Virus record (IMG/VR): IMGVR_UViG_3300037243_000147 | Coordinates: 1 to 55,738 of that record | Strand: one strand, 5' to 3' | DNA: 55,738 bases | Origin: a virus | Taxonomy: Duplodnaviria > Caudoviricetes | Shown: positions 132-28,202 of the stretch, one piece after another | Position numbering within the stretch: the stretch's first letter is position 1 | How the letters are laid out: each line of letters opens with the position of its first letter | Translations under genes and position numbers: made by a program | Notes under the pieces: generated by a model | What the model saw: only the letters and a program-made list of their open reading frames with translations | Database searches by the model: none | What the model was told of the DNA's origin: nothing

Positions 132-502
132 CATTTCTGGCTCCGAGGCAGATTTCCAATTTGGACTGCATCAATAATCGACCCGCGGCCAATAATCAAT
201 TTGCCTTCAGGAAATGGCTCTACCTCCGAAAACGAACACGATGTAAGTGCCCCCGCAAATCGCCCAGTGTCGGCAATCCAGGCTGCTGACTCAAGCACAA
301 GCTCATCGGGATATACCGCGACCAGTTTCCCGGTGTCGATCATAGTGACAGTGCGAATCAGATAGTTCTTGCCGATCTCCCACGGGCCAACAACAGCCTC
401 GGCAGGGACAGCGGCGAGTGTAGATGTGGATGTACCAAACATTGAGGCCAACTGTCTTGCCTCACGGATTGTCAGATCGTCGATAGTCGTAGTTACAGGC
501 AT
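131..502 (-). CDS. conserved phage hypothetical protein (small beta-rich domain, DUF6948-like)
   Basis: WEIGKNYLIRTVTMIDTGKLV...LVLESAAWIADTGRF...EVEPFP motif resembles a recurrent phage family. Purine-rich SD (GAGGGGGAG) upstream. Confidence 0.6.
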   Translation of the reverse strand: MPVTTTIDDLTIREARQLASMFGTSTSTLAAVPAEAVVGPWEIGKNYLIRTVTMIDTGKLVAVYPDELVLESAAWIADTGRFAGALTSCSFSEVEPFPEGKLIIGRGSIIDAVQIGNLPRSQK

Positions 503-550
503 TGCGATTATTCTCCCCCTCTAATCCCTCTAGTTACAGTTACAGCTATA

Positions 551-579
551 CTTCTATACCGGTTGGATGCCGTTGTCAA
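551..579 (-). promoter_or_regulatory. sigma70-like leftward promoter
   Basis: Minus strand TTGACA-17 bp-TAGAAG upstream of 131..502. Confidence 0.55.
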
Positions 580-639
580 CCCATTATCAACTATTCATTC
601 ACAAATATATTTCCTGCCCCCACTATTGACATCCCCGCC
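566..639. repeat. direct repeat copy 1 (promoter cassette)
   Basis: 566-620 is identical to 2215-2269 (55 bp), with similarity continuing about 19 bp further. Contains a leftward TTGACA and a rightward TTGACA. Confidence 0.95.
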
Positions 640-700
640 TTGCCCTCACTTTTACTATAGCTATTGCTATTGCCATTGCTCTTTACTGACTTTACTGTAG

Positions 701-1216
701 TCATTGAACAGCCCTTCCCTTATTTTTTATCCCTTCCACTTCCTTCATGATTCTGCGATACCCTTCTGCAAAGACCTCAATAATTTCGGGCAGAATATTC
801 AACTGATGCCGAGTAAGGGCGGTCACTTCCGCATCGGTCAAATCCTGCTCGCCTCCCGAATGCACCCAAAGCGGAACAGAACGCTTCTCGTACATAGCCT
901 CGTACCACGTCCTGTAATCACCCTCACCCTCCCCTTCTCCCCACGGAGGGATAGTGATTTTGTGCGGGTCGATGGTTTTACGACGCTCAATTCCCTCTCG
1001 GACAGCCTTGAACATTCCTGTCTGGACAGGGGTAAACTCAGATGTATCGTCTAGGTTCCGAGCTAGAACCATATACGGCAACGGACACTGTTTCCAATCA
1101 GGGTATGGGCAGTCGTGAACGCAGAGAATGGAGTCGTGGATATACCACAGCAACGCATCTAGTTCGTTATCTTTTGCCAGAATTGAATCCAATTTGTAAA
1201 TTTCCATTTTAGCCAT
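701..1216 (-). CDS. hypothetical protein
   Basis: ORF track 701..1273. Start re-chosen at MAKMEIYK, directly after the stop of the upstream gene. Confidence 0.65.
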   Translation of the reverse strand: MAKMEIYKLDSILAKDNELDALLWYIHDSILCVHDCPYPDWKQCPLPYMVLARNLDDTSEFTPVQTGMFKAVREGIERRKTIDPHKITIPPWGEGEGEGDYRTWYEAMYEKRSVPLWVHSGGEQDLTDAEVTALTRHQLNILPEIIEVFAEGYRRIMKEVEGIKNKGRAVQ

Positions 1217-1217
1217 T

Positions 1218-1400
1218 TTATTTCTCATTGCAGTCCGATGCACAGGTCCGTTGAGGGTTGGATTCGTACTCATGCATGTGACGTAGAATAATTATTTTAG
1301 CGCCGTCAACGTCAAGCACTGGGCCATCACCCTCCTGCTCTTCAATTGCACATCCCCGTAAATCCTCTGCCAGCTTTTCAGCAAACTCCTCAACTGTCAT
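1218..1400 (-). CDS. hypothetical protein
   Basis: MTVEEFAEKL start has an AAGGGG SD and lies downstream of the promoter at 1436-1464. Confidence 0.55.
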   Translation of the reverse strand: MTVEEFAEKLAEDLRGCAIEEQEGDGPVLDVDGAKIIILRHMHEYESNPQRTCASDCNEK

Positions 1401-1435
1401 CGCTGTAATCCCCTTCACTCTCTTACGCTCATATC

Positions 1436-1464
1436 CTTCTATTCCCATTCCAATCCGTTGTCAA
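1436..1464 (-). promoter_or_regulatory. sigma70-like leftward promoter
   Basis: Minus strand TTGACA-17 bp-TAGAAG, same architecture as 551-579. Confidence 0.5.
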
Positions 1465-1477
1465 TCCATTACCCAAC

Positions 1478-2176
1478 TTAATTTATTTCTTCTCTTGCCA
1501 TCCTCTTGACATGCATCTGCATCCCGATCAGCCCTCGTTTCAAATTCCCATCATCAAACCTTCTCCCATCCACCCCCGCCGCCACCAGCGACTTGATAAA
1601 CCTTGCCAGCACACATTTCCCGTCAATCCCCCAGCTACGTCCCGTATCCTCCATCAACTTAATCGCACGAGTTGTAGACACAAATCCCCTACCCTCTTTA
1701 CTTGGCTCCCAATCCTCACTCCTGCCCACGCTCATATGCTCGGTATATTCACGCCCCTGTTCATCGGTAAACTCCACCGCCAGCGTAGGTATAGGATCAG
1801 CCAGTCCAATATAGTCGAACATAGTCGCGGCAACATCAGTGATCTCGACATCCATATCATCCAGATAACCCACACGGAAATTCTCGGGCGACATGGATAC
1901 AGGAATAGCCTTAGAAGGAGCCGAGGAGTTATTGACATTCTTGGCAAACGGCTCACCCTCTCCCGGCAACGCAATAATCCTGGTTGCCAATAGAAATGTC
2001 CGGGGCCTCTCCACCATCATTTTCCTCTCAAGATTTTCGGCCTTGTGTCGAGTACGCGACGAGTCTTTAACCATGCTGGCACTCTCCTTCTTAGCCTGAT
2101 TAACTGTAGTTATCAACTTCCACCCGCCATACATCAGCAGAATCAATACTGCACCCGTTACAAACATGAATATCAT
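1478..2176 (-). CDS. hypothetical protein with N-terminal transmembrane anchor
   Basis: 232 aa ORF, hydrophobic N-terminus, GAGGAGG SD. Confidence 0.7.
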   Translation of the reverse strand: MIFMFVTGAVLILLMYGGWKLITTVNQAKKESASMVKDSSRTRHKAENLERKMMVERPRTFLLATRIIALPGEGEPFAKNVNNSSAPSKAIPVSMSPENFRVGYLDDMDVEITDVAATMFDYIGLADPIPTLAVEFTDEQGREYTEHMSVGRSEDWEPSKEGRGFVSTTRAIKLMEDTGRSWGIDGKCVLARFIKSLVAAGVDGRRFDDGNLKRGLIGMQMHVKRMAREEIN

Positions 2177-2214
2177 TCAATCCTCCTCAACTATCTGTAA
2201 CCTACATTCACTAT

Positions 2215-2288
2215 GATGCCGTTGTCAACCCATTATCAACTATTCATTCACAAATATATTTCCTGCCCCTGCTATTGACGTCCCCGCC
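2215..2288. repeat. direct repeat copy 2 (divergent promoter cassette)
   Basis: Matches 566-639. Leftward TTGACA-18-TAGGTT. Rightward TTGACG-18-TACTAT toward the replication genes. Confidence 0.95.
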
Positions 2289-2462
2289 CGCCTCCCCCTA
2301 CTATCTCTCCTGCACCTCTCCGGTGCTCCTCAAGGGTTAGGGGGTGGATCAGACTTGCTATCTGGTCCGCCTTCGGCACCTCTTCCCCTCTGGACACCTC
2401 CTGACAAGGCACTCAACCCTTGCCGCCATTTAACCGATCTTGCTGTCTGAGGACATCTACTA

Positions 2463-3089
2463 ATGCCCCGAAAGCACCGTGACTCAACGGTTTCCACGCC
2501 TATTGATACTCTATCCGTATCCATCCCCGTCAACTGTGACCCCTCCGACACGGAGTTTCTTGTCGAATCCCTCTACCCTGTGCACAAAGTCCACATGTTT
2601 ATAGGCAGAACCAGTCCATGCAAAGATGAAATTGCCACTTTCGTCCTAGATCAGTTCATCAACCCCTGGTGTCAGGGACTGCCCGTATTTGGGCACAAAT
2701 CCCACCCGATGCCGTTCTGCTACGTGGACTGCTGCGATTCGCTTCTCAGACTCGCGCTCATCCTATTCAACCTCAGGCATCCCGCGCTTGAGGATTTCCC
2801 CGGCATCTCGCTGATCGACAACCCTCCCCCCTTCCCTGACACCGATCTCTTTGACCACTGCCTCTACATTGCCCGCCAGTGCGTTCCTGACCTCAAGGTG
2901 CTATTCCTTGATGGCTATGCTCACATCCTCCCCGGCGACCCTCACGATGACGCTGATACCGAAAGATTTAACGCCCGAGTGGATAAAGCGGCTCGGGAAG
3001 AAAATATTACGGTGATAGGCATAGATGAGTTCGACAATCTGGACGAAATGAAGGCCGGTATGGAAGCACGGAGAAGGAAATTCCAATGA
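2463..3089 (+). CDS. degenerate AAA_25/RecA-like ATPase paralogue
   Basis: Aligns by eye with the next gene (VHMFIGRTSPCKD vs VHLWSGESGVGKT; PMPFCYV vs PLPFCYI; VLFLDG vs VIFLDS), but Walker A is corrupted. Confidence 0.7.
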   Translation: MPRKHRDSTVSTPIDTLSVSIPVNCDPSDTEFLVESLYPVHKVHMFIGRTSPCKDEIATFVLDQFINPWCQGLPVFGHKSHPMPFCYVDCCDSLLRLALILFNLRHPALEDFPGISLIDNPPPFPDTDLFDHCLYIARQCVPDLKVLFLDGYAHILPGDPHDDADTERFNARVDKAAREENITVIGIDEFDNLDEMKAGMEARRRKFQ

Positions 3090-4042
3090 CATCGAAACGC
3101 CACAATTCCGACACATCGGGTACTACCCGCAAAACCTATGGCCAGATCTCTCCCGCCCCCGACTTTATCGCCAAGCCTATTTTTTCCTCGAATGAGGTGC
3201 ATCTCTGGAGCGGTGAATCTGGAGTAGGTAAAACCAGTCTGCTGCTACAAACCATCTCCTCTTGGAGCCGTGAAGACCCTATATTCGGCTGCCAGTCCTT
3301 CCCCCTACCTTTCTGCTACATCTCCAGCGAACGCTCCCGTAGAGTCGTCCTGAGAGCCTTGAAGCGCCTCAGCATCGACCCTGAGGATAACTTTCCCGTC
3401 TTCTCGTCCTTCGACAAGCACCTGAAAACTCTGGAGTCAGCAGTGGATATGGCACTGGAGATATTTCCCGATACCCGCGTGATCTTCCTCGACAGTCTCA
3501 CCAAATTTATCGAAGGTGACCCGAACCGCCCCGCCACAGTCAGCAAAATCTTCGACCAGGCATCCACTCTAGGAGAGAAATATGGCTTGACATTCATTGC
3601 CACTACCTGTGCTGCCAAAGCCAAAGTAGGAGAACACTACCTCAATCTACGGCAGCGTGTAAGCGGCTCTGCGATGTTCGGATCGTCTGCCGTCACCATC
3701 ATCATAATTGAGTTCGGCAACCCTCACGACCCTCACGACCCCCGCCGCATCGTACACATTCTGGACGTAGACGGTGGCGTTCGCACTCTGCATTACACCG
3801 TCAACGTCAAAACCGGCGCATTCACTATTGCCCCCGAGGACATCGAGAACAACTCGGACTTTGAGAAGATAGTGTTTGCAAGGGGTGAAGGTGGTATACT
3901 TCCCCCTAGCGACTTGGATGGCATCTGTAAGACCGTGGGAGTATGCCTACGGACGGGACAACGTTACATGAAAGAACTGGTTGAGGACGGGCGAGTACGC
4001 AGGGAATTAACGGGCATATACACGATCTCTAAGCCCCAGTAG
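3086..4042 (+). CDS. AAA_25/RepA-like (SF4-type) replicative helicase with C-terminal winged HTH
   Basis: Walker A GESGVGKT, catalytic Glu (YISSE), Walker B VIFLDS, VSGSAMF motif, C-terminal HTH-like segment (VCLRTGQRYMKELVEDGRV). Confidence 0.8.
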   Translation: MTSKRHNSDTSGTTRKTYGQISPAPDFIAKPIFSSNEVHLWSGESGVGKTSLLLQTISSWSREDPIFGCQSFPLPFCYISSERSRRVVLRALKRLSIDPEDNFPVFSSFDKHLKTLESAVDMALEIFPDTRVIFLDSLTKFIEGDPNRPATVSKIFDQASTLGEKYGLTFIATTCAAKAKVGEHYLNLRQRVSGSAMFGSSAVTIIIIEFGNPHDPHDPRRIVHILDVDGGVRTLHYTVNVKTGAFTIAPEDIENNSDFEKIVFARGEGGILPPSDLDGICKTVGVCLRTGQRYMKELVEDGRVRRELTGIYTISKPQ

Positions 4043-4110
4043 TACCCCTTAACAGGGCGGCAATATAACGGCACGCGAACCGTGTATTAGATTTAAGTCA
4101 AGAGAGTATA

Positions 4111-4315
4111 TACGTGTCGCGTGTCGCATCAACAAACCATCTCCCTAATAAATCAATAAGTTAACACGCGACACGGGCAATGTCGCGTCGATGTCGCGTG
4201 TCGCGTCAATTTATGTGACACGACACTCAAACGACACCCATGCGACATGGGTGATGTCGCGTCATAAATAGCCTATTTTGATGAAGTTAACCCTAAAAAC
4301 AGCCTGATGCGACAC
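4111..4315. other. putative replication origin (iteron array)
   Basis: About 12 copies of TGTCG(C)/(G)CGACA in both orientations, plus an IHF-consensus match AATCAATAAGTTA (4151-4163), in non-coding DNA just after the helicase. Confidence 0.65.
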
Positions 4316-4410
4316 GTTTTTACCCTGCTCTAATGTGGGTCAAAATCACTCCCAACCACATGATTCTAATCAAGTTACATTGGATTCAAGTAAATATTAC
4401 ACAGAAAAGA

Positions 4411-4441
4411 AAAGGCCCAATTTTTGACGATTTGGGCCTTT
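4411..4441. terminator. bidirectional terminator-like hairpin
   Basis: AAAGGCCCAA...TTGGGCCTTT between convergent transcription units, flanked by a direct repeat ATGATTCTAATCAAGTTA (4360-4377, 4456-4473). Confidence 0.55.
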
Positions 4442-4473
4442 ATTTGCGTATGTCAATGATTCTAATCAAGTTA

Positions 4474-4767
4474 TCATATACAATTCCCCGATATTTTTGC
4501 TATCGCCGCCTCCTCCCCATCTCCGTCCACTGCCCCTGCCTCCAGCCCCGCTAACATCCTTTCCGCAGCACCCTTACATATCCCATGACTGCTGATCCTG
4601 GCATCCCCCTCGACCTGTATCGTGACCGCCCCACACGCCACGCATTGGTACTGGTTAGCTATACCCGTAGCGTTAGCCTTGGCTAGACCTTTACCCTCAC
4701 ACTCAGGGCTATTGCAGGTGGCGTACAGGAAATGTTCAGACTCACAATAATTGCAGTAGTACAGCAT
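4474..4767 (-). CDS. Cys-rich zinc-binding hypothetical protein
   Basis: CNYC, CNSPEC, CVAC and SHGIC motifs. Confidence 0.7.
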   Translation of the reverse strand: MLYYCNYCESEHFLYATCNSPECEGKGLAKANATGIANQYQCVACGAVTIQVEGDARISSHGICKGAAERMLAGLEAGAVDGDGEEAAIAKISGNCI

Positions 4768-4780
4768 TGGCTCGAATCCC

Positions 4781-4822
4781 CCTCTATCCTCTATCCTCTA
4801 TCCTCTATCCTCTATCCTCTAT
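4781..4822. repeat. heptamer tandem repeat (CCTCTAT)x6
   Basis: Read directly. Abuts the RBS of 4474..4767. Confidence 0.95.
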
Positions 4823-4885
4823 CTTTCAGCTCTGAATTTGCAGCTACTAACAATCGCACAAATCCCGCAACTTAGCTACAGTTAG

Positions 4886-5254
4886 CTACAGCTTGACTCC
4901 CAATTTCTTCGCCCTCGCTATAGCGCCCTCTTGAGCTTCCCGTCTGGCTTTACCCCAATCACTCTCAGCCTCTACCTCCATCTGTGTAGCTGAGAACTCT
5001 ACCTCCATCCCGACCTCACACGCCCCTAACAGTAGAGCGGCCTCTATGTCTTCCCAGATAGCCTTGCTGGTTCCGATAGTGCCAATCCTCTGCCATTTGG
5101 TTTGACCATCGCCGCCATCGGGTACGCGCTGTAATATCTCGACTCTGCATCTACCCTTGCCTATACCCTCGGGTGTGTAGGTGACCTCTACCCGCAATAG
5201 TGATTTGATACCAGCCTGACTACCCCCACCTCCATCTCTACTGGTCATCCTCAC
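4886..5254 (-). CDS. hypothetical protein
   Basis: ORF track. Tightly packed in the leftward operon. Confidence 0.65.
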   Translation of the reverse strand: MRMTSRDGGGGSQAGIKSLLRVEVTYTPEGIGKGRCRVEILQRVPDGGDGQTKWQRIGTIGTSKAIWEDIEAALLLGACEVGMEVEFSATQMEVEAESDWGKARREAQEGAIARAKKLGVKL

Positions 5255-10128: not shown

Positions 10129-10500
10129 CGTTTAACCATGTAATAAACCAAAGTCCCTAACGCTACCGTTACCCCTAACTCCCAGGGCATTAGTTGCGCC
10201 ACAAAAATAAGATTCCGCACCCGCTCCATCACAACTCCCACCCCACTATATGTATATATCCGCTAACATCTACAAATAAACCTACAACTCAGAATAGCCA
10301 CATTTTCACACGCTATCTGTACTCTGTCCAATACCCTTTCCGGGTTCTCATTTGTGATTAGAACAGAGTACAAATAGCTGGTGTAGTGGGCCTAACCCCT
10401 GCCCCAACCCCTAACAATTGCACCTTGACTGGTTTCTGTTCGATTTCAGGCCATTCCACGATTACCACCTATGGCTATGGCCTATGGCTATGGCCTATGG

Positions 10501-12287: not shown

Positions 12288-12509
12288 GATTATGTATTCT
12301 CCCTGTGATGTTCGATTACCCTGTTATATTGCTCAAAGCTATACTCTGGACTGGTGTCACTGGTATCCATAGCTTTAAGCAATGATAGTTATAGTCTATG
12401 TATCGGATACGATTGATAGAATCAATAGATTTAGACTATGAATCGCATCCAACCACTCTAATTCGGAAATAGGCTCATGTTCATATGTCATGACAGTTTC
12501 CATTCTCCA

Positions 12510-12740
12510 TTACCAACCGAATGCGGCCATGTGTTCAGGGCGAGTCCGGCATATAGTCAATGCATCGTGCATAGCGGTGTAGGCATGTCTAAGAGCGGTG
12601 AATGTGATATCGCATTTGCTGGACATGTAGGCATCATGAGCCAGTATCCATGCGGCTCTAGCGGATAGATAGGCTTGATAGTGTGGTGATGATTCATAGA
12701 TAGTTATGTTAGTCGTAGCTTCAGAAAGAGTCTTACTCAT
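12510..12740 (-). CDS. hypothetical protein
   Basis: ORF track. AAGGGGA SD. Confidence 0.6.
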   Translation of the reverse strand: MSKTLSEATTNITIYESSPHYQAYLSARAAWILAHDAYMSSKCDITFTALRHAYTAMHDALTICRTRPEHMAAFGW

Positions 12741-12798
12741 GCTGTCATTCCCCTTTGTATTGTTAATGAGTTGATAACGTATATAGATAGTCTGTTAT

Positions 12799-12981
12799 CT
12801 ATCGCGATGCACGGCGCATAAATCTGATAGCGTCTGCTCTCTTCTCCGCGCTCTCTCGCGTCTTTTCAATCCCACATACCTGCCCACCATCCATTACCGC
12901 GAATCCCTCTCGCACCTTGCCCAGAGCATCTTTGATAACGAATGCCGTGCCTGCCTTGCTCTCTTTTACTGTGATAGCCAT
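12799..12981 (-). CDS. hypothetical protein
   Basis: MAITVKESK start with GGGAG SD (trimmed from the ORF-track call). Confidence 0.6.
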   Translation of the reverse strand: MAITVKESKAGTAFVIKDALGKVREGFAVMDGGQVCGIEKTRESAEKRADAIRFMRRASR

Positions 12982-13133
12982 TGATCCATTCTCCCTTGTA
13001 TTGATAACCGATTCGGACGACCGCCAATGTGTTCCTTTGCCCGCGCGAATTGTTCGGCATGGTACCAAGTGTAGTAGTAGCAGATAGACTGCCGCTTGCC
13101 GTTGCCGTATGTGACTCGATACAGACTGTACAT
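12966..13133 (-). CDS. small hypothetical protein downstream of the hammerhead
   Basis: Hand-translated 55 aa MYSLYRVTYGNGKRQSICYYYTWYHAEQF.... SD-like AGAGG is supplied by the 3' end of the ribozyme. Confidence 0.5.
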   Translation of the reverse strand: MYSLYRVTYGNGKRQSICYYYTWYHAEQFARAKEHIGGRPNRLSIQGRMDQWLSQ

Positions 13134-13210
13134 GTTAATTGGCCTCTTCAGTGACCTTATATAAGGTCAGACTAGAACTATAGCCAGTGTTCTAGTTTCG
13201 GCCTCTTAAC
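13134..13210 (-). ncRNA. type II hammerhead ribozyme
   Basis: Minus strand: GUUAA-GA-GGCC GAAA CUAGAAC-loop-GUUCUAG UC/ UGACCUU-loop-AAGGUCA CUGAAGA GGCC-AA-UUAAC. The complete CUGANGA, GAAA and GUC core is present with three stems. Confidence 0.9.
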
Positions 13211-13406
13211 CTTTGTTTGTCTTCTGGTATACCTTTTCGCGCTTGAGCCAATCTCTCAGGTGCTTGATCTTGGCGGTCTCTGTCTGACGGATAGCTGATC
13301 GTGCCCATTTACCCAATCCACAGGTGCGAGAATAAATGATGTGATTGCGGGACTGTTCGATCAGGTCTAATATGACCTGTACTCCGGGATGATCTTCAGT
13401 GCACAT
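13206..13406 (-). CDS. hypothetical protein
   Basis: ORF track. GGAGAG SD. Its stop codon lies in the ribozyme's closing stem. Confidence 0.65.
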   Translation of the reverse strand: MCTEDHPGVQVILDLIEQSRNHIIYSRTCGLGKWARSAIRQTETAKIKHLRDWLKREKVYQKTNKG

Positions 13407-13520
13407 GTGTAACTCTCCATTCCCATATTCCCGTGCTCGATTACCAGTGATTGTATCGTCCCTATATATAATGATAGAGGCAGGGCCAAATGTAGATGTA
13501 GATAGCCCCGATTGGTTACG

Positions 13521-13715
13521 TTACCGTGTGATAATGTCTTGAATATTTAACATCCAACCATTGATCATGACATATCTCTGTGCATCCATATCCCATGCGC
13601 GGAACCGGGAATTGAAATCAGTATCCGGCTTGACCAGCATGAACAGTTTCAAGTCCACATATCTTCCCATTACTTCGCGTGTGTATCCTTCGAGTACCGC
13701 GCCATTGTCGTCCAT
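13521..13715 (-). CDS. hypothetical protein (first gene of the leftward arm)
   Basis: ORF track. Downstream of the promoter at ~13787-13816. Confidence 0.6.
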   Translation of the reverse strand: MDDNGAVLEGYTREVMGRYVDLKLFMLVKPDTDFNSRFRAWDMDAQRYVMINGWMLNIQDIITR

Positions 13716-13786
13716 GTCAGTCTCTCTCTCTCTCTATTCTTGATTAGGTATCATTCCCGCTATCAACTCATTTACAACGTAATCAA

Positions 13787-13816
13787 TATATACGCTAACT
13801 CAGATACCATTGTCAA
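13787..13816 (-). promoter_or_regulatory. leftward early promoter
   Basis: TTGACA-18-TATATA on the minus strand at the strand switch. Confidence 0.55.
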
Positions 13817-14101
13817 CGGAATAGTTGCATCCATCCATATTTATTTTCAGCTCCACATATTCGCGGCCACTCAGTTACACATTGATTAGCTGCCGGACAT
13901 GGTACCTAATGGATATGGATCGATCGAGTATGGCCAGCGACGATCCCGCGGGCGCAAGGGTACCCACCACCGGCGACTGGCGCGATTTTAATCTCATACT
14001 CCTTCGTGTATATTGACTAAAAATTTCAGCTACTCGGAATCTACTCTCAATCACTTGTTGTAACAACTAACCTAATAATTTTTTCCCACATTATTTTTCT
14101 C

Positions 14102-14130
14102 TTGACACCCATAATAAACATACGTATAGT
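14102..14130 (+). promoter_or_regulatory. rightward sigma70 promoter
   Basis: TTGACA-17-TATAGT with upstream T-tracts (UP-element like). Confidence 0.85.
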
Positions 14131-14138
14131 CACTCCCT

Positions 14139-14318
14139 ATGAAGACCCCTAGTGGCAGGCCCGCCATGTCAGCTATACAACGAATGACCTCTATCTGTTT
14201 GAATCTTCCTAAGCCAATGCTAGCTGCTCTGAAAAATTCATCGGCAGTGTCGGGGCTTCCAATGAGTGAGATTATACGGAATGCGATTGAGGCTCATTTG
14301 AAAGCGTTGGGAATTTAG
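14139..14318 (+). CDS. ribbon-helix-helix (CopG/Arc-like) regulator, leaderless
   Basis: Hand-translated 59 aa ...TSICLNLPKPMLAALKNSSAVSGLPMSEIIRNAIEAHL. ATG is 8 nt after the -10 box, with no SD. Confidence 0.8.
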   Translation: MKTPSGRPAMSAIQRMTSICLNLPKPMLAALKNSSAVSGLPMSEIIRNAIEAHLKALGI

Positions 14319-27129: not shown

Positions 27130-27192
27130 AGGACGAGCTGCACGCCTTTAGGGAGGCAAACATGAACCAGTGCAAACTGGAAACTCGTCCTG
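27130..27192 (-). ncRNA. candidate cis-antisense three-way-junction RNA of HNH gene 27162
   Basis: GGACGAGU/GCUCGUCC closing stem, CCAGU/ACUGG hairpin, and a hairpin carrying the anti-SD. G-U pairs form only on this strand. Weak extended -10 (TGtTATAGG) upstream. Confidence 0.55.
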
Positions 27193-28202
27193 CACCTTCC
27201 TATAACACAACTCTGTCGTCCGTTGAAAGATTTCCAAACAATTACGACCTCTGCCCGTTATGTGGCGAAATTAAGGCCAAGGTGAGCGCTATGTGCCGCG
27301 CCTGCCGTTTTCCGCCCAGAGCGTCCATTCCACAGCCATCTGATCCAACAATCCGTCATCTACCTCTGACCCAAGGCTATTACGTTGTTGTGTCGGCTGA
27401 GGGTTATGAACGTGCATCTACACGTAAATGGCATGTACATATCATCAGGTGCAAGGACGGCAGCGTTAGAAACGTCTACGCAATAAGCAACATAGTGATA
27501 GACGGTCGTCGCACAACAATAAAACTGCACCGTTTTCTTATGGGAATTACCGATCCATTGATACAAATAGATCACGAAGACGGTGAAGGATTGACTTGCG
27601 TTCCCAGTAATATGCGTACCGCTACGAAGAGACAGAATAACTATAACAGCCGCAAGCGCTACAACAGTACTGCCCCTTTCAAGGGGATGACATTGAACGC
27701 CCGTGAACAGAAATATCGAGTTCAAATCTGGACGCCTAGTGGAAGGAAGTGCCTTGGCAGGTTTCCTCTAGATGCTGCTGAGGAGGCTGCTCGTTGCTAC
27801 GATTACTGGGCGGTCAAACTTCAGGGAGCTTTTGCTTGCACTAATGTAAAGCTGGGGCTATTACCTCCTCTTAGTGACGATGAGGCAGCGGCACAGGCAT
27901 GTAAGTGGGAGAATGAATATAAGCTCAACAGAAATAACTCCAGTGGCTATATGGGTGTTGCGTCGATTAAGTCTGGTCTGAGATGGAAAGCCTCGGCCAG
28001 ATTAGATGGCCGTCAGAGGCATCTCGGACTATATGACACAGCAAAAGAGGCAGCAAGGGTTCGGGATGCCGCAATTGTGTTGTCCGATGTGCATACTGTG
28101 CGTACTTGGCTGAATTTTCCCGATGAACCTCCAACGCCCGAAGAGGTAGCCAACGTTAAGAAGTATTTGGAACGTAAGAGGGGAAGTCACCGCAAGGTAT
28201 AG
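27162..28202 (+). CDS. Zn-ribbon + HNH + 2xAP2 homing endonuclease
   Basis: CPLCG...CRAC; LPLTQG; LHRFLMG...IDHEDG...SNMR; two AP2-like LGxF/Y...AA..D repeats. Confidence 0.88.
   Translation: MNQCKLETRPAPSYNTTLSSVERFPNNYDLCPLCGEIKAKVSAMCRACRFPPRASIPQPSDPTIRHLPLTQGYYVVVSAEGYERASTRKWHVHIIRCKDGSVRNVYAISNIVIDGRRTTIKLHRFLMGITDPLIQIDHEDGEGLTCVPSNMRTATKRQNNYNSRKRYNSTAPFKGMTLNAREQKYRVQIWTPSGRKCLGRFPLDAAEEAARCYDYWAVKLQGAFACTNVKLGLLPPLSDDEAAAQACKWENEYKLNRNNSSGYMGVASIKSGLRWKASARLDGRQRHLGLYDTAKEAARVRDAAIVLSDVHTVRTWLNFPDEPPTPEEVANVKKYLERKRGSHRKV

Follow-up and report, generated by a model that had tools for sequence, protein, structure and literature searches.

The source contig comprises 55,738 bases, is classed as linear and has a CheckV completeness estimate of 58%; we refer to the whole of this stretch as the window. 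From approximately 19.9 kb onwards its plus strand carries genes for a terminase large subunit, a portal protein, an HNH endonuclease and tail proteins, and the terminase large subunit, portal and tail genes identify the source as a tailed phage. The HNH endonuclease gene (346 aa; 27162–28202, plus strand) lies immediately after the portal gene, downstream of the terminase. On the minus strand a long run of small open reading frames (ORFs) extends from approximately 14.07 kb down to approximately 4.4 kb, and it is inside this run that the hammerhead described here is located. The leftward run diverges from a plus-strand ribbon-helix-helix gene (14139–14318). A near-consensus sigma-70-like promoter (14102–14130, plus strand; TTGACA, a 17-nucleotide spacer and TATAGT; 11/12) is positioned directly before the 59-aa CopG-like gene, and the region 14102–14318 is likely to be a regulatory switch. 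The promoter of the leftward run was not located, the scan for sigma-70-like promoters giving three sites compared with 5.9 expected.

The hammerhead occupies the entire 72 nucleotides that separate a 66-aa gene from the small ORF after it. The upstream 66-aa entry in the ORF list (13206–13406, minus strand) has a codon score of 0.13 in frame versus 0.01 and −0.16, and its product has an 87%-identical homologue of 69 aa (P0002) on another metagenome contig (4690 bp). No Pfam or PHROG family was found for this protein and no relative was found in the viral contigs. Since the in-frame codon score is the best of the three and a close homologue exists, the ORF looks real. The gene status of the downstream 55-aa ORF, which is also taken from the ORF list (12966–13133, minus strand; AUG start at 13133–13131), is uncertain. 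Its codon scores are ambiguous (0.03, 0.02 and −0.12), it has no relative in the viral contigs, and the only non-self matches of an exhaustive search for homologues are to three long, unrelated proteins with myosin, TAL-repeat or no domains, which were judged to be repeat or compositional matches. We consider it doubtful that this ORF is a gene. The following 60-aa ORF (12799–12981, minus strand) has its own ribosome-binding site, GGGAGAA, and is the first downstream ORF with a homologue; its product clusters with P0005, from which it differs at three of 60 residues. Other contigs also encode proteins identical to the 66-aa and 60-aa products.

Comparison of the neighbouring genes with those of other contigs indicates that this part of the operon is variable. 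A blastn search of 12500–14000 against the INPHARED phages gave no match, and no orthologous copy of the hammerhead was found using the 66-aa, 55-aa and 173-aa proteins as queries in the viral contigs, nor in the metagenome contigs or the genome_contigs collection. A query of genome_contigs with the 173-aa neighbour gave no match. In the viral contigs this neighbour has one relative, with 73% identity, on contig L123. There, within positions 3638–4522, a homologue of the 64-aa gene of the window (13715–13521) is found directly upstream of the 173-aa homologue; the gene strand of L123 has no CUGANGA and the whole of the hammerhead segment is absent. As L123 joins the 64-aa and 173-aa homologues directly, the corresponding segment of approximately 1.2 kb in the window (within 12288–13520), which holds the 66-aa ORF, the hammerhead and the 55-, 60- and 76-aa ORFs, is a variable insert. 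It follows from the lack of an orthologous copy in these searches that there is no covariation to report for the 13134–13210 locus.

Catalytic core and predicted fold

Read 5′ to 3′ on the minus (coding) strand from 13210 to 13134, the sequence contains a complete hammerhead core, consisting of C3–A9 (CUGAAGA), G12–A14 (GAA), the A15.1–U16.1 pair and C17. The elements occur in the order stem II, GAAA, hairpin III, UH, hairpin I, CUGANGA, stem II, which is the order that defines type II; stems I and III, of 7 and 8 bp, are closed by loops and the 4-bp stem II (GGCC) is open. The full extent of the element, 13134–13210 on the minus strand including a weak outer extension of stem II, is defined by the sequence, the minimum free-energy (MFE) fold and the covariance-model match described below. 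From its 5′ end it begins with the outer-helix strand GUUAA (13210–13206), which contains the upstream stop codon UAA (13208–13206), followed by a GA linker (13205–13204) and the 5′ strand of stem II, GGCC (11.4–11.1; 13200–13203), which pairs with 13141–13144. Core residues G12, A13 and A14 (13197–13199), which are invariant in the 24-sequence seed alignment A1 described below, lead into the stem III hairpin (13171–13196), identified from the fold and from our descriptor; this runs from A15.1 (13196) to U16.1 (13171) and has the form A-CUAGAAC, a 10-nucleotide loop and GUUCUAG-U. The predicted scissile bond (13169–13170) lies between C17 (13170) and U1.1 (13169), a placement that follows from the established hammerhead numbering. 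The stem I hairpin (13152–13169; UGACCUU, loop AUAU, AAGGUCA) was likewise identified from both fold and descriptor. It is followed by core residues C3, U4, G5, A6, A7, G8 and A9 (13145–13151), the 3′ strand of stem II, GGCC (10.1–10.4; 13141–13144), identified from sequence and fold, an AA linker (13140–13139) and the 3′ strand of the outer helix, UUAAC (13138–13134), which directly precedes the AUG of the 55-aa ORF.

All three stems are perfect, with four, seven and eight pairs in stems II, I and III, respectively. The pairs that adjoin the core are canonical: 10.1–11.1 is G13144–C13200, 1.1–2.1 is U13169–A13152 and 15.1–16.1 is A13196–U13171. Residue H17 is C13170, and not a guanine, giving a GUC cleavage site. 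The acceptance rule given by Perreault 2011 (PMC3088659) calls for three helices with no mispair beside the core, and both features are present here. For the 77-nucleotide RNA, the MFE and centroid folds are both exactly the hammerhead three-way junction (−25.7 kcal/mol, z = −4.34); none of 200 shuffled sequences was as stable, and the junction is kept when the RNA is folded within a 181-nucleotide context.

To assess how often such an arrangement arises, both strands of the window were searched with a type II descriptor of our own, in which the core words and all three stems are required. It returned 13141–13203 as the only site. In 1000 dinucleotide-preserving shuffles of the window, the same descriptor gave 56 sites with stems of at least 3/3/2 bp, two with at least 4/4/3 bp and none with at least 6/6/4 bp, compared with observed stems of 7/8/4 bp. 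The earlier note on this DNA had assigned the element to type II, placed it on the coding strand and located its GUC site near 13170; the core, the fold, the shuffles and the covariance model all bear this out. As judged from its sequence, 13134–13210 is a genuine type II hammerhead ribozyme, and the RNA probably cleaves itself between C13170 and U13169.

Covariance models and a viral GGCC subclass

The earlier note had also suggested a search with Infernal and the Rfam Hammerhead_II model (RF02276). This search was negative at the gathering score (37 bits) and at E ≤ 1 over the whole window, and again at E ≤ 10 on the 251 bases of 13050–13300. We therefore considered how well the model recovers comparable sites: in 20 viral loci it gave five matches at the gathering score, compared with 30 sites found there by the descriptor with stems of at least 4/4/3 bp. 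With recall this poor, the miss at 13134–13210 says little about the identity of the element. The Rfam model is insensitive to the viral subclass with GGCC in stem II, and as it misses most sites of this kind, annotation of phages using Rfam will under-report such ribozymes.

A covariance model incorporating the hammerhead structure (R1) was built from a seed alignment (A1) of 24 unique hammerheads of equal length from other viral contigs. The rows of A1 were picked by a descriptor that demands pairing, and so its pair counts are not independent evidence for the stems. When R1 was run on the window with filters off, it matched 13206–13138 on the minus strand over the full length of the model, with a score of 45.6 bits and an E value of 1.1 × 10−10. 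The runner-up, at 2001–2045, scored 13.4 bits; it lies inside a 232-aa ORF and has no CUGANGA, and we rejected it as a second hammerhead and regard it as a chance match. In 40 loci outside the seed, 60 R1 matches scored between 23 and 68 bits, which places the window copy in the lower part of the range, and its G+C content of 43% is the lowest among the R1 matches, the others having 47–75%. We file 13134–13210 as type II on the defining features of its sequence together with R1, and not on an Rfam score.

The GGCC-stem-II subclass is a grouping made in this analysis from IMG/VR and metagenome contigs. The viral contigs were scanned with a pattern consisting of GGCCGAAA, a gap, GTC, a gap and CTGANGAGGCC, in which stems I and III are not demanded, and at least 120 stretches were found. 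Among the matches listed, 129 of 141 pattern sites form stems I and III even though the pattern does not require them, which indicates that the class is real and large. Stem II is GGCC with exactly 4 bp in 147 of the 155 descriptor sites listed from other viral loci, and hairpin I is 17–18 nucleotides long in 139 of these 155, the length class to which the window copy also belongs. A pattern specific for stem I, applied to the metagenome contigs, recovered 12 loci; these are ordinary members of the class and their flanks have no similarity to the window.

The window copy shares with the subclass the arrangement A-GGCC…GGCC-A, with a stem II of 4 bp and a flanking adenine on both sides, a 7-bp stem I with a short loop beginning with U, a variable stem III and the GUC site. 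It also has the upstream stop codon adjoining stem II. There are several points of difference. The window copy is A/U-rich, with a G+C content below the 47–75% of the other R1 matches. The sixth pair of stem I is G–C in 115 of 127 members among the matches listed but U–A in the window. Loop I usually has five nucleotides (108 of 127 among the matches listed) and the form U-N-A-N-G, compared with the six-nucleotide UAUAUA of the window; the first base of the loop is U in 125 and the last base is G in 102 of the same 127, and the window retains only the first U. These loop I features are typical of the subclass and not necessarily essential to it. The window copy is single, whereas some contigs have many, and its start codon is only seven nucleotides after stem II. 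Finally, it does not have the 3′ tail, RUCAG, complementary to the core that is present in 30 of 121 members among the matches listed. These sequence comparisons place the window copy, with its high A/U content, at the periphery of a large viral subclass, close relatives of which might already be contained in the alignments or Dataset S1 of Perreault 2011.

Two features found elsewhere in the subclass are worth recording. In 30 of 121 sites among the matches listed, the eight nucleotides after stem II include the reverse complement of the core CUGAN, as in CUGAUGA-GGCC-AUCAG and CUGACGA-GGCC-GUCAG (loci L003–L122). Covariation between this tail and N7 implies that those class members can form an alternative hairpin in which the core would be masked; the window copy is without the tail. 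The second feature is the multiplicity of copies on a single contig. On the minus strand of L008, eleven R1 matches (58–68 bits) are found within 5 kb (171–5159), one per 250–900 nucleotides, between small genes; this is an extreme hammerhead array.

The position of the window copy relative to genes is that of the subclass. Among the matches listed, 121 class sites have at least 400 nucleotides of flank; 113 of these lie between ORFs on the same strand, and an open frame of at least 40 codons ends near the 5′ end in 117 and starts near the 3′ end in 117. In the window the upstream stop codon, UAA 13208–13206, ends two nucleotides before stem II (−2), and in 80 of 117 class sites among the matches listed it ends between −3 and +1 nucleotides from the first G of stem II. 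In 36 of those 80 the stop codon is a UAG that shares its G with stem II. With a stop this close, a terminating ribosome would cover stem II. The adjacency may reflect compaction or coupling, and the comparison does not control for the conserved adenine.

It had been claimed in addition that the closing stem has its start inside the upstream stop codon. The pairing itself exists: GUUAA (13210–13206) can pair with UUAAC (13138–13134) across a GA/AA internal loop. However, the outer helix consists of five weak pairs and is no better than expected by chance, the flank duplex having an energy of −3.3 kcal/mol that is equalled by 37% of shuffled flanks. In the GGCC class, among the matches listed, pairing is no stronger between the two flanks of one site than between flanks swapped among sites (p = 0.28). 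We take GGCC/GGCC to be the functional stem II, and the outer extension is possibly fortuitous.

Proposed role in the leftward transcript

What is observed at the locus is the motif together with its fold and statistical significance, the match to a large class and the position between same-strand genes. In our view these features are best interpreted as a genuine hammerhead that probably folds and cuts the transcript of the leftward operon, so uncoupling the first genes from the small ORFs that follow. The transcript would fold into the three-way junction and would then be cut between C13170 and U13169. As stems I and III are both capped, intramolecular hairpins, the two products would be held together only by stem II, with its four GGCC pairs and weak extension, and are expected to come apart. 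This would leave the upstream message with the 8-bp stem III hairpin and a 2′,3′-cyclic phosphate at its 3′ end, and the downstream message with a 5′-hydroxyl and the 7-bp stem I hairpin at its start. Ends that are protected by a hairpin or that carry a 5′-hydroxyl are expected to slow exonucleases and the 5′-monophosphate-dependent RNase E. The first two or three genes of the operon would in this way be uncoupled from the approximately 25 small ORFs after them, with separate stabilities and separate translation. Separation of the products and an effect on expression are both likely.

Cutting of the message between genes has been proposed for clustered prophage hammerheads, as outlined in PMC3088659. 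The uncoupling of the first genes from the remainder, which the earlier note had put forward, agrees with that proposal and with the context of the class, but we carry it forward here as a prediction from the sequence of the locus. That the genes on either side are early ones, as the note also has it, is a reading of the gene layout.

A different role was considered, namely that the ribozyme mainly switches on translation of the 55-aa ORF. Before cleavage the GAGG at 13146–13143, formed by G8 and A9 of the core and the two guanines of the 3′ strand of stem II, would be held in the core and in stem II; cleavage would release the other strand of that stem and so free the ribosome-binding site. 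GAGG is a possible Shine–Dalgarno sequence, being nine nucleotides before the AUG at 13133. The predicted folds agree with such a change, which the earlier note had put forward as a possible exposure of the ribosome-binding site: the 181-nucleotide fold places G13144–G13143 and UUAAC in helices, with the UGU of AUGUAC pairing further out, and the predicted 3′ product leaves CUGAAGAG and the AUG mostly unpaired. The spacing is normal for the Shine–Dalgarno sequence that had been assigned here, but the gene it would serve is unsupported, the 55-aa ORF having ambiguous codon usage and no credible homologue. Further points against this role are that chance pairing would do as well as the outer helix and that ribosomes can open a 4-bp helix. 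The layout is also atypical, as the start codon is three to eight nucleotides after stem II in only seven of 117 class members among the matches listed. The window AUG, seven nucleotides after stem II and nine after GAGG, belongs with this minority. The next start codon in the class is mostly 11–60 nucleotides after stem II among the matches listed, which indicates that the class does not generally gate translation in this manner; 19 apparent starts at −8, also among the matches listed, are the AUG inside CUGAUGA and were set aside as artefacts. Taken together, we consider it unlikely that freeing of the ribosome-binding site is the main role of this ribozyme.

An extended form of this model is slightly less likely still. 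Here the core also serves as the ribosome-binding site, and translation downstream depends on translation upstream as well as on self-cleavage. Folding of the ribozyme would be prevented while a ribosome was terminating at the stop codon of the 66-aa gene, two nucleotides from stem II; once cleavage had taken place, the GAGG and the start codon of the 55-aa ORF would be released for good. If this were true, the element would be a translation-linked one-way switch and not a simple message cutter.

Whether the ribozyme would cut at a useful rate depends on features outside the core. As given in PMC3088659, the type II consensus combines a short stem II with a pseudoknot in which loop I forms at least four pairs with the tail that directly follows this stem; the same source places the pseudoknot in the majority of type II members but not in all. 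The window copy differs from that consensus in that its best pairing between loop I and the tail, UAUAU with AUGUA, consists of five A–U or G–U pairs located seven nucleotides past stem II; shuffled tails equal it in 15% of cases. In the GGCC subclass, among the matches listed, tails pair with their own loop I no better than swapped tails do (p = 0.73). A pseudoknot between loop I and the 3′ tail is accordingly unsupported for both the window copy and the subclass. The tertiary contact required for fast cleavage at physiological Mg2+ may be weak in the window copy, as its loop I departs from the signature of the subclass. Mainly on account of this contact, we rate the predicted activity as no better than reasonably probable.

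These peripheral differences could instead mark a hammerhead in decay, descended from the class but with drifted peripheral loops and no useful rate in the cell, its hairpins serving at most as passive structure. Loop I and its closing pair are off the subclass signature, the R1 score is low by the standards of the class and the G+C content is the lowest seen. According to PMC3088659, hammerheads with changes outside the core are orders of magnitude slower at 0.5 mM Mg2+. A relic, however, would be expected to show defects in the core or stems first, and here every core nucleotide and every core-adjoining pair is intact and the stems of 7, 8 and 4 bp are perfect. We regard decay as improbable, on a par with the one-way switch. 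The remaining alternative, a chance look-alike in which a pair of intergenic hairpins, such as those of a terminator or RNase III site, lies beside core-like words by coincidence, could appeal to the lack of any Rfam hammerhead match and of an orthologue to show conservation, but it is close to refuted by the stem lengths reached in the shuffles and by the R1 E value, as well as by the lack of a U-tract after either hairpin and of any hit in the terminator scan of the minus strand, and we attach very little probability to it.

Comparison with known hammerheads

Of the known systems, the type II hammerheads of bacteria and prophages (PMC3088659; RF02276) are the most directly comparable. The window copy has the same core and the same permutation, with stems I and III capped and stem II open, and, like those described in PMC3088659, it is found between small same-strand genes of phage origin with the same proposed role of transcript cutting. 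It differs from RF02276 in falling below the gathering score, being unlisted even at E ≤ 10. According to PMC3088659, type II hammerheads flank single genes or short prophage gene blocks and cleave both in vitro and in E. coli. Three type II hammerheads of Desulfovibrio vulgaris near phage-like genes are reported in PMC8782182 to cleave in vivo, as detected by cyPhyRNA-seq. They resemble the window copy in adjoining hypothetical and phage-like genes, but belong to another organism and have other sequences, and cleavage in the cell was seen there, whereas the window copy is known from its sequence.

The arrangement of a hammerhead between phage genes has been in print since 2011 (PMC3088659) and is common in viral metagenomes. 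Taken alone, 13134–13210 adds one more intergenic phage hammerhead to the kind described then. Its unusually high A/U content sets it apart from the class, and its core coincides in part with a possible ribosome-binding site, which makes it a compact construct for testing cleavage-gated translation.

We note one further structured element in the same operon. The minus strand at 10303–10386 (folded as 10290–10400), located between ORFs of 87 aa and 288 aa (the latter DUF7447), forms a long, near-perfect hairpin of approximately 21 pairs (−43.7 kcal/mol, z = −5.0; 0/200 shuffles). Its only Rfam match is a sub-threshold mir-4520 look-alike, at 29.6 bits compared with a cut-off of 90. Possible roles for this hairpin include those of an RNase III site, an operator or some other processing element of the operon.
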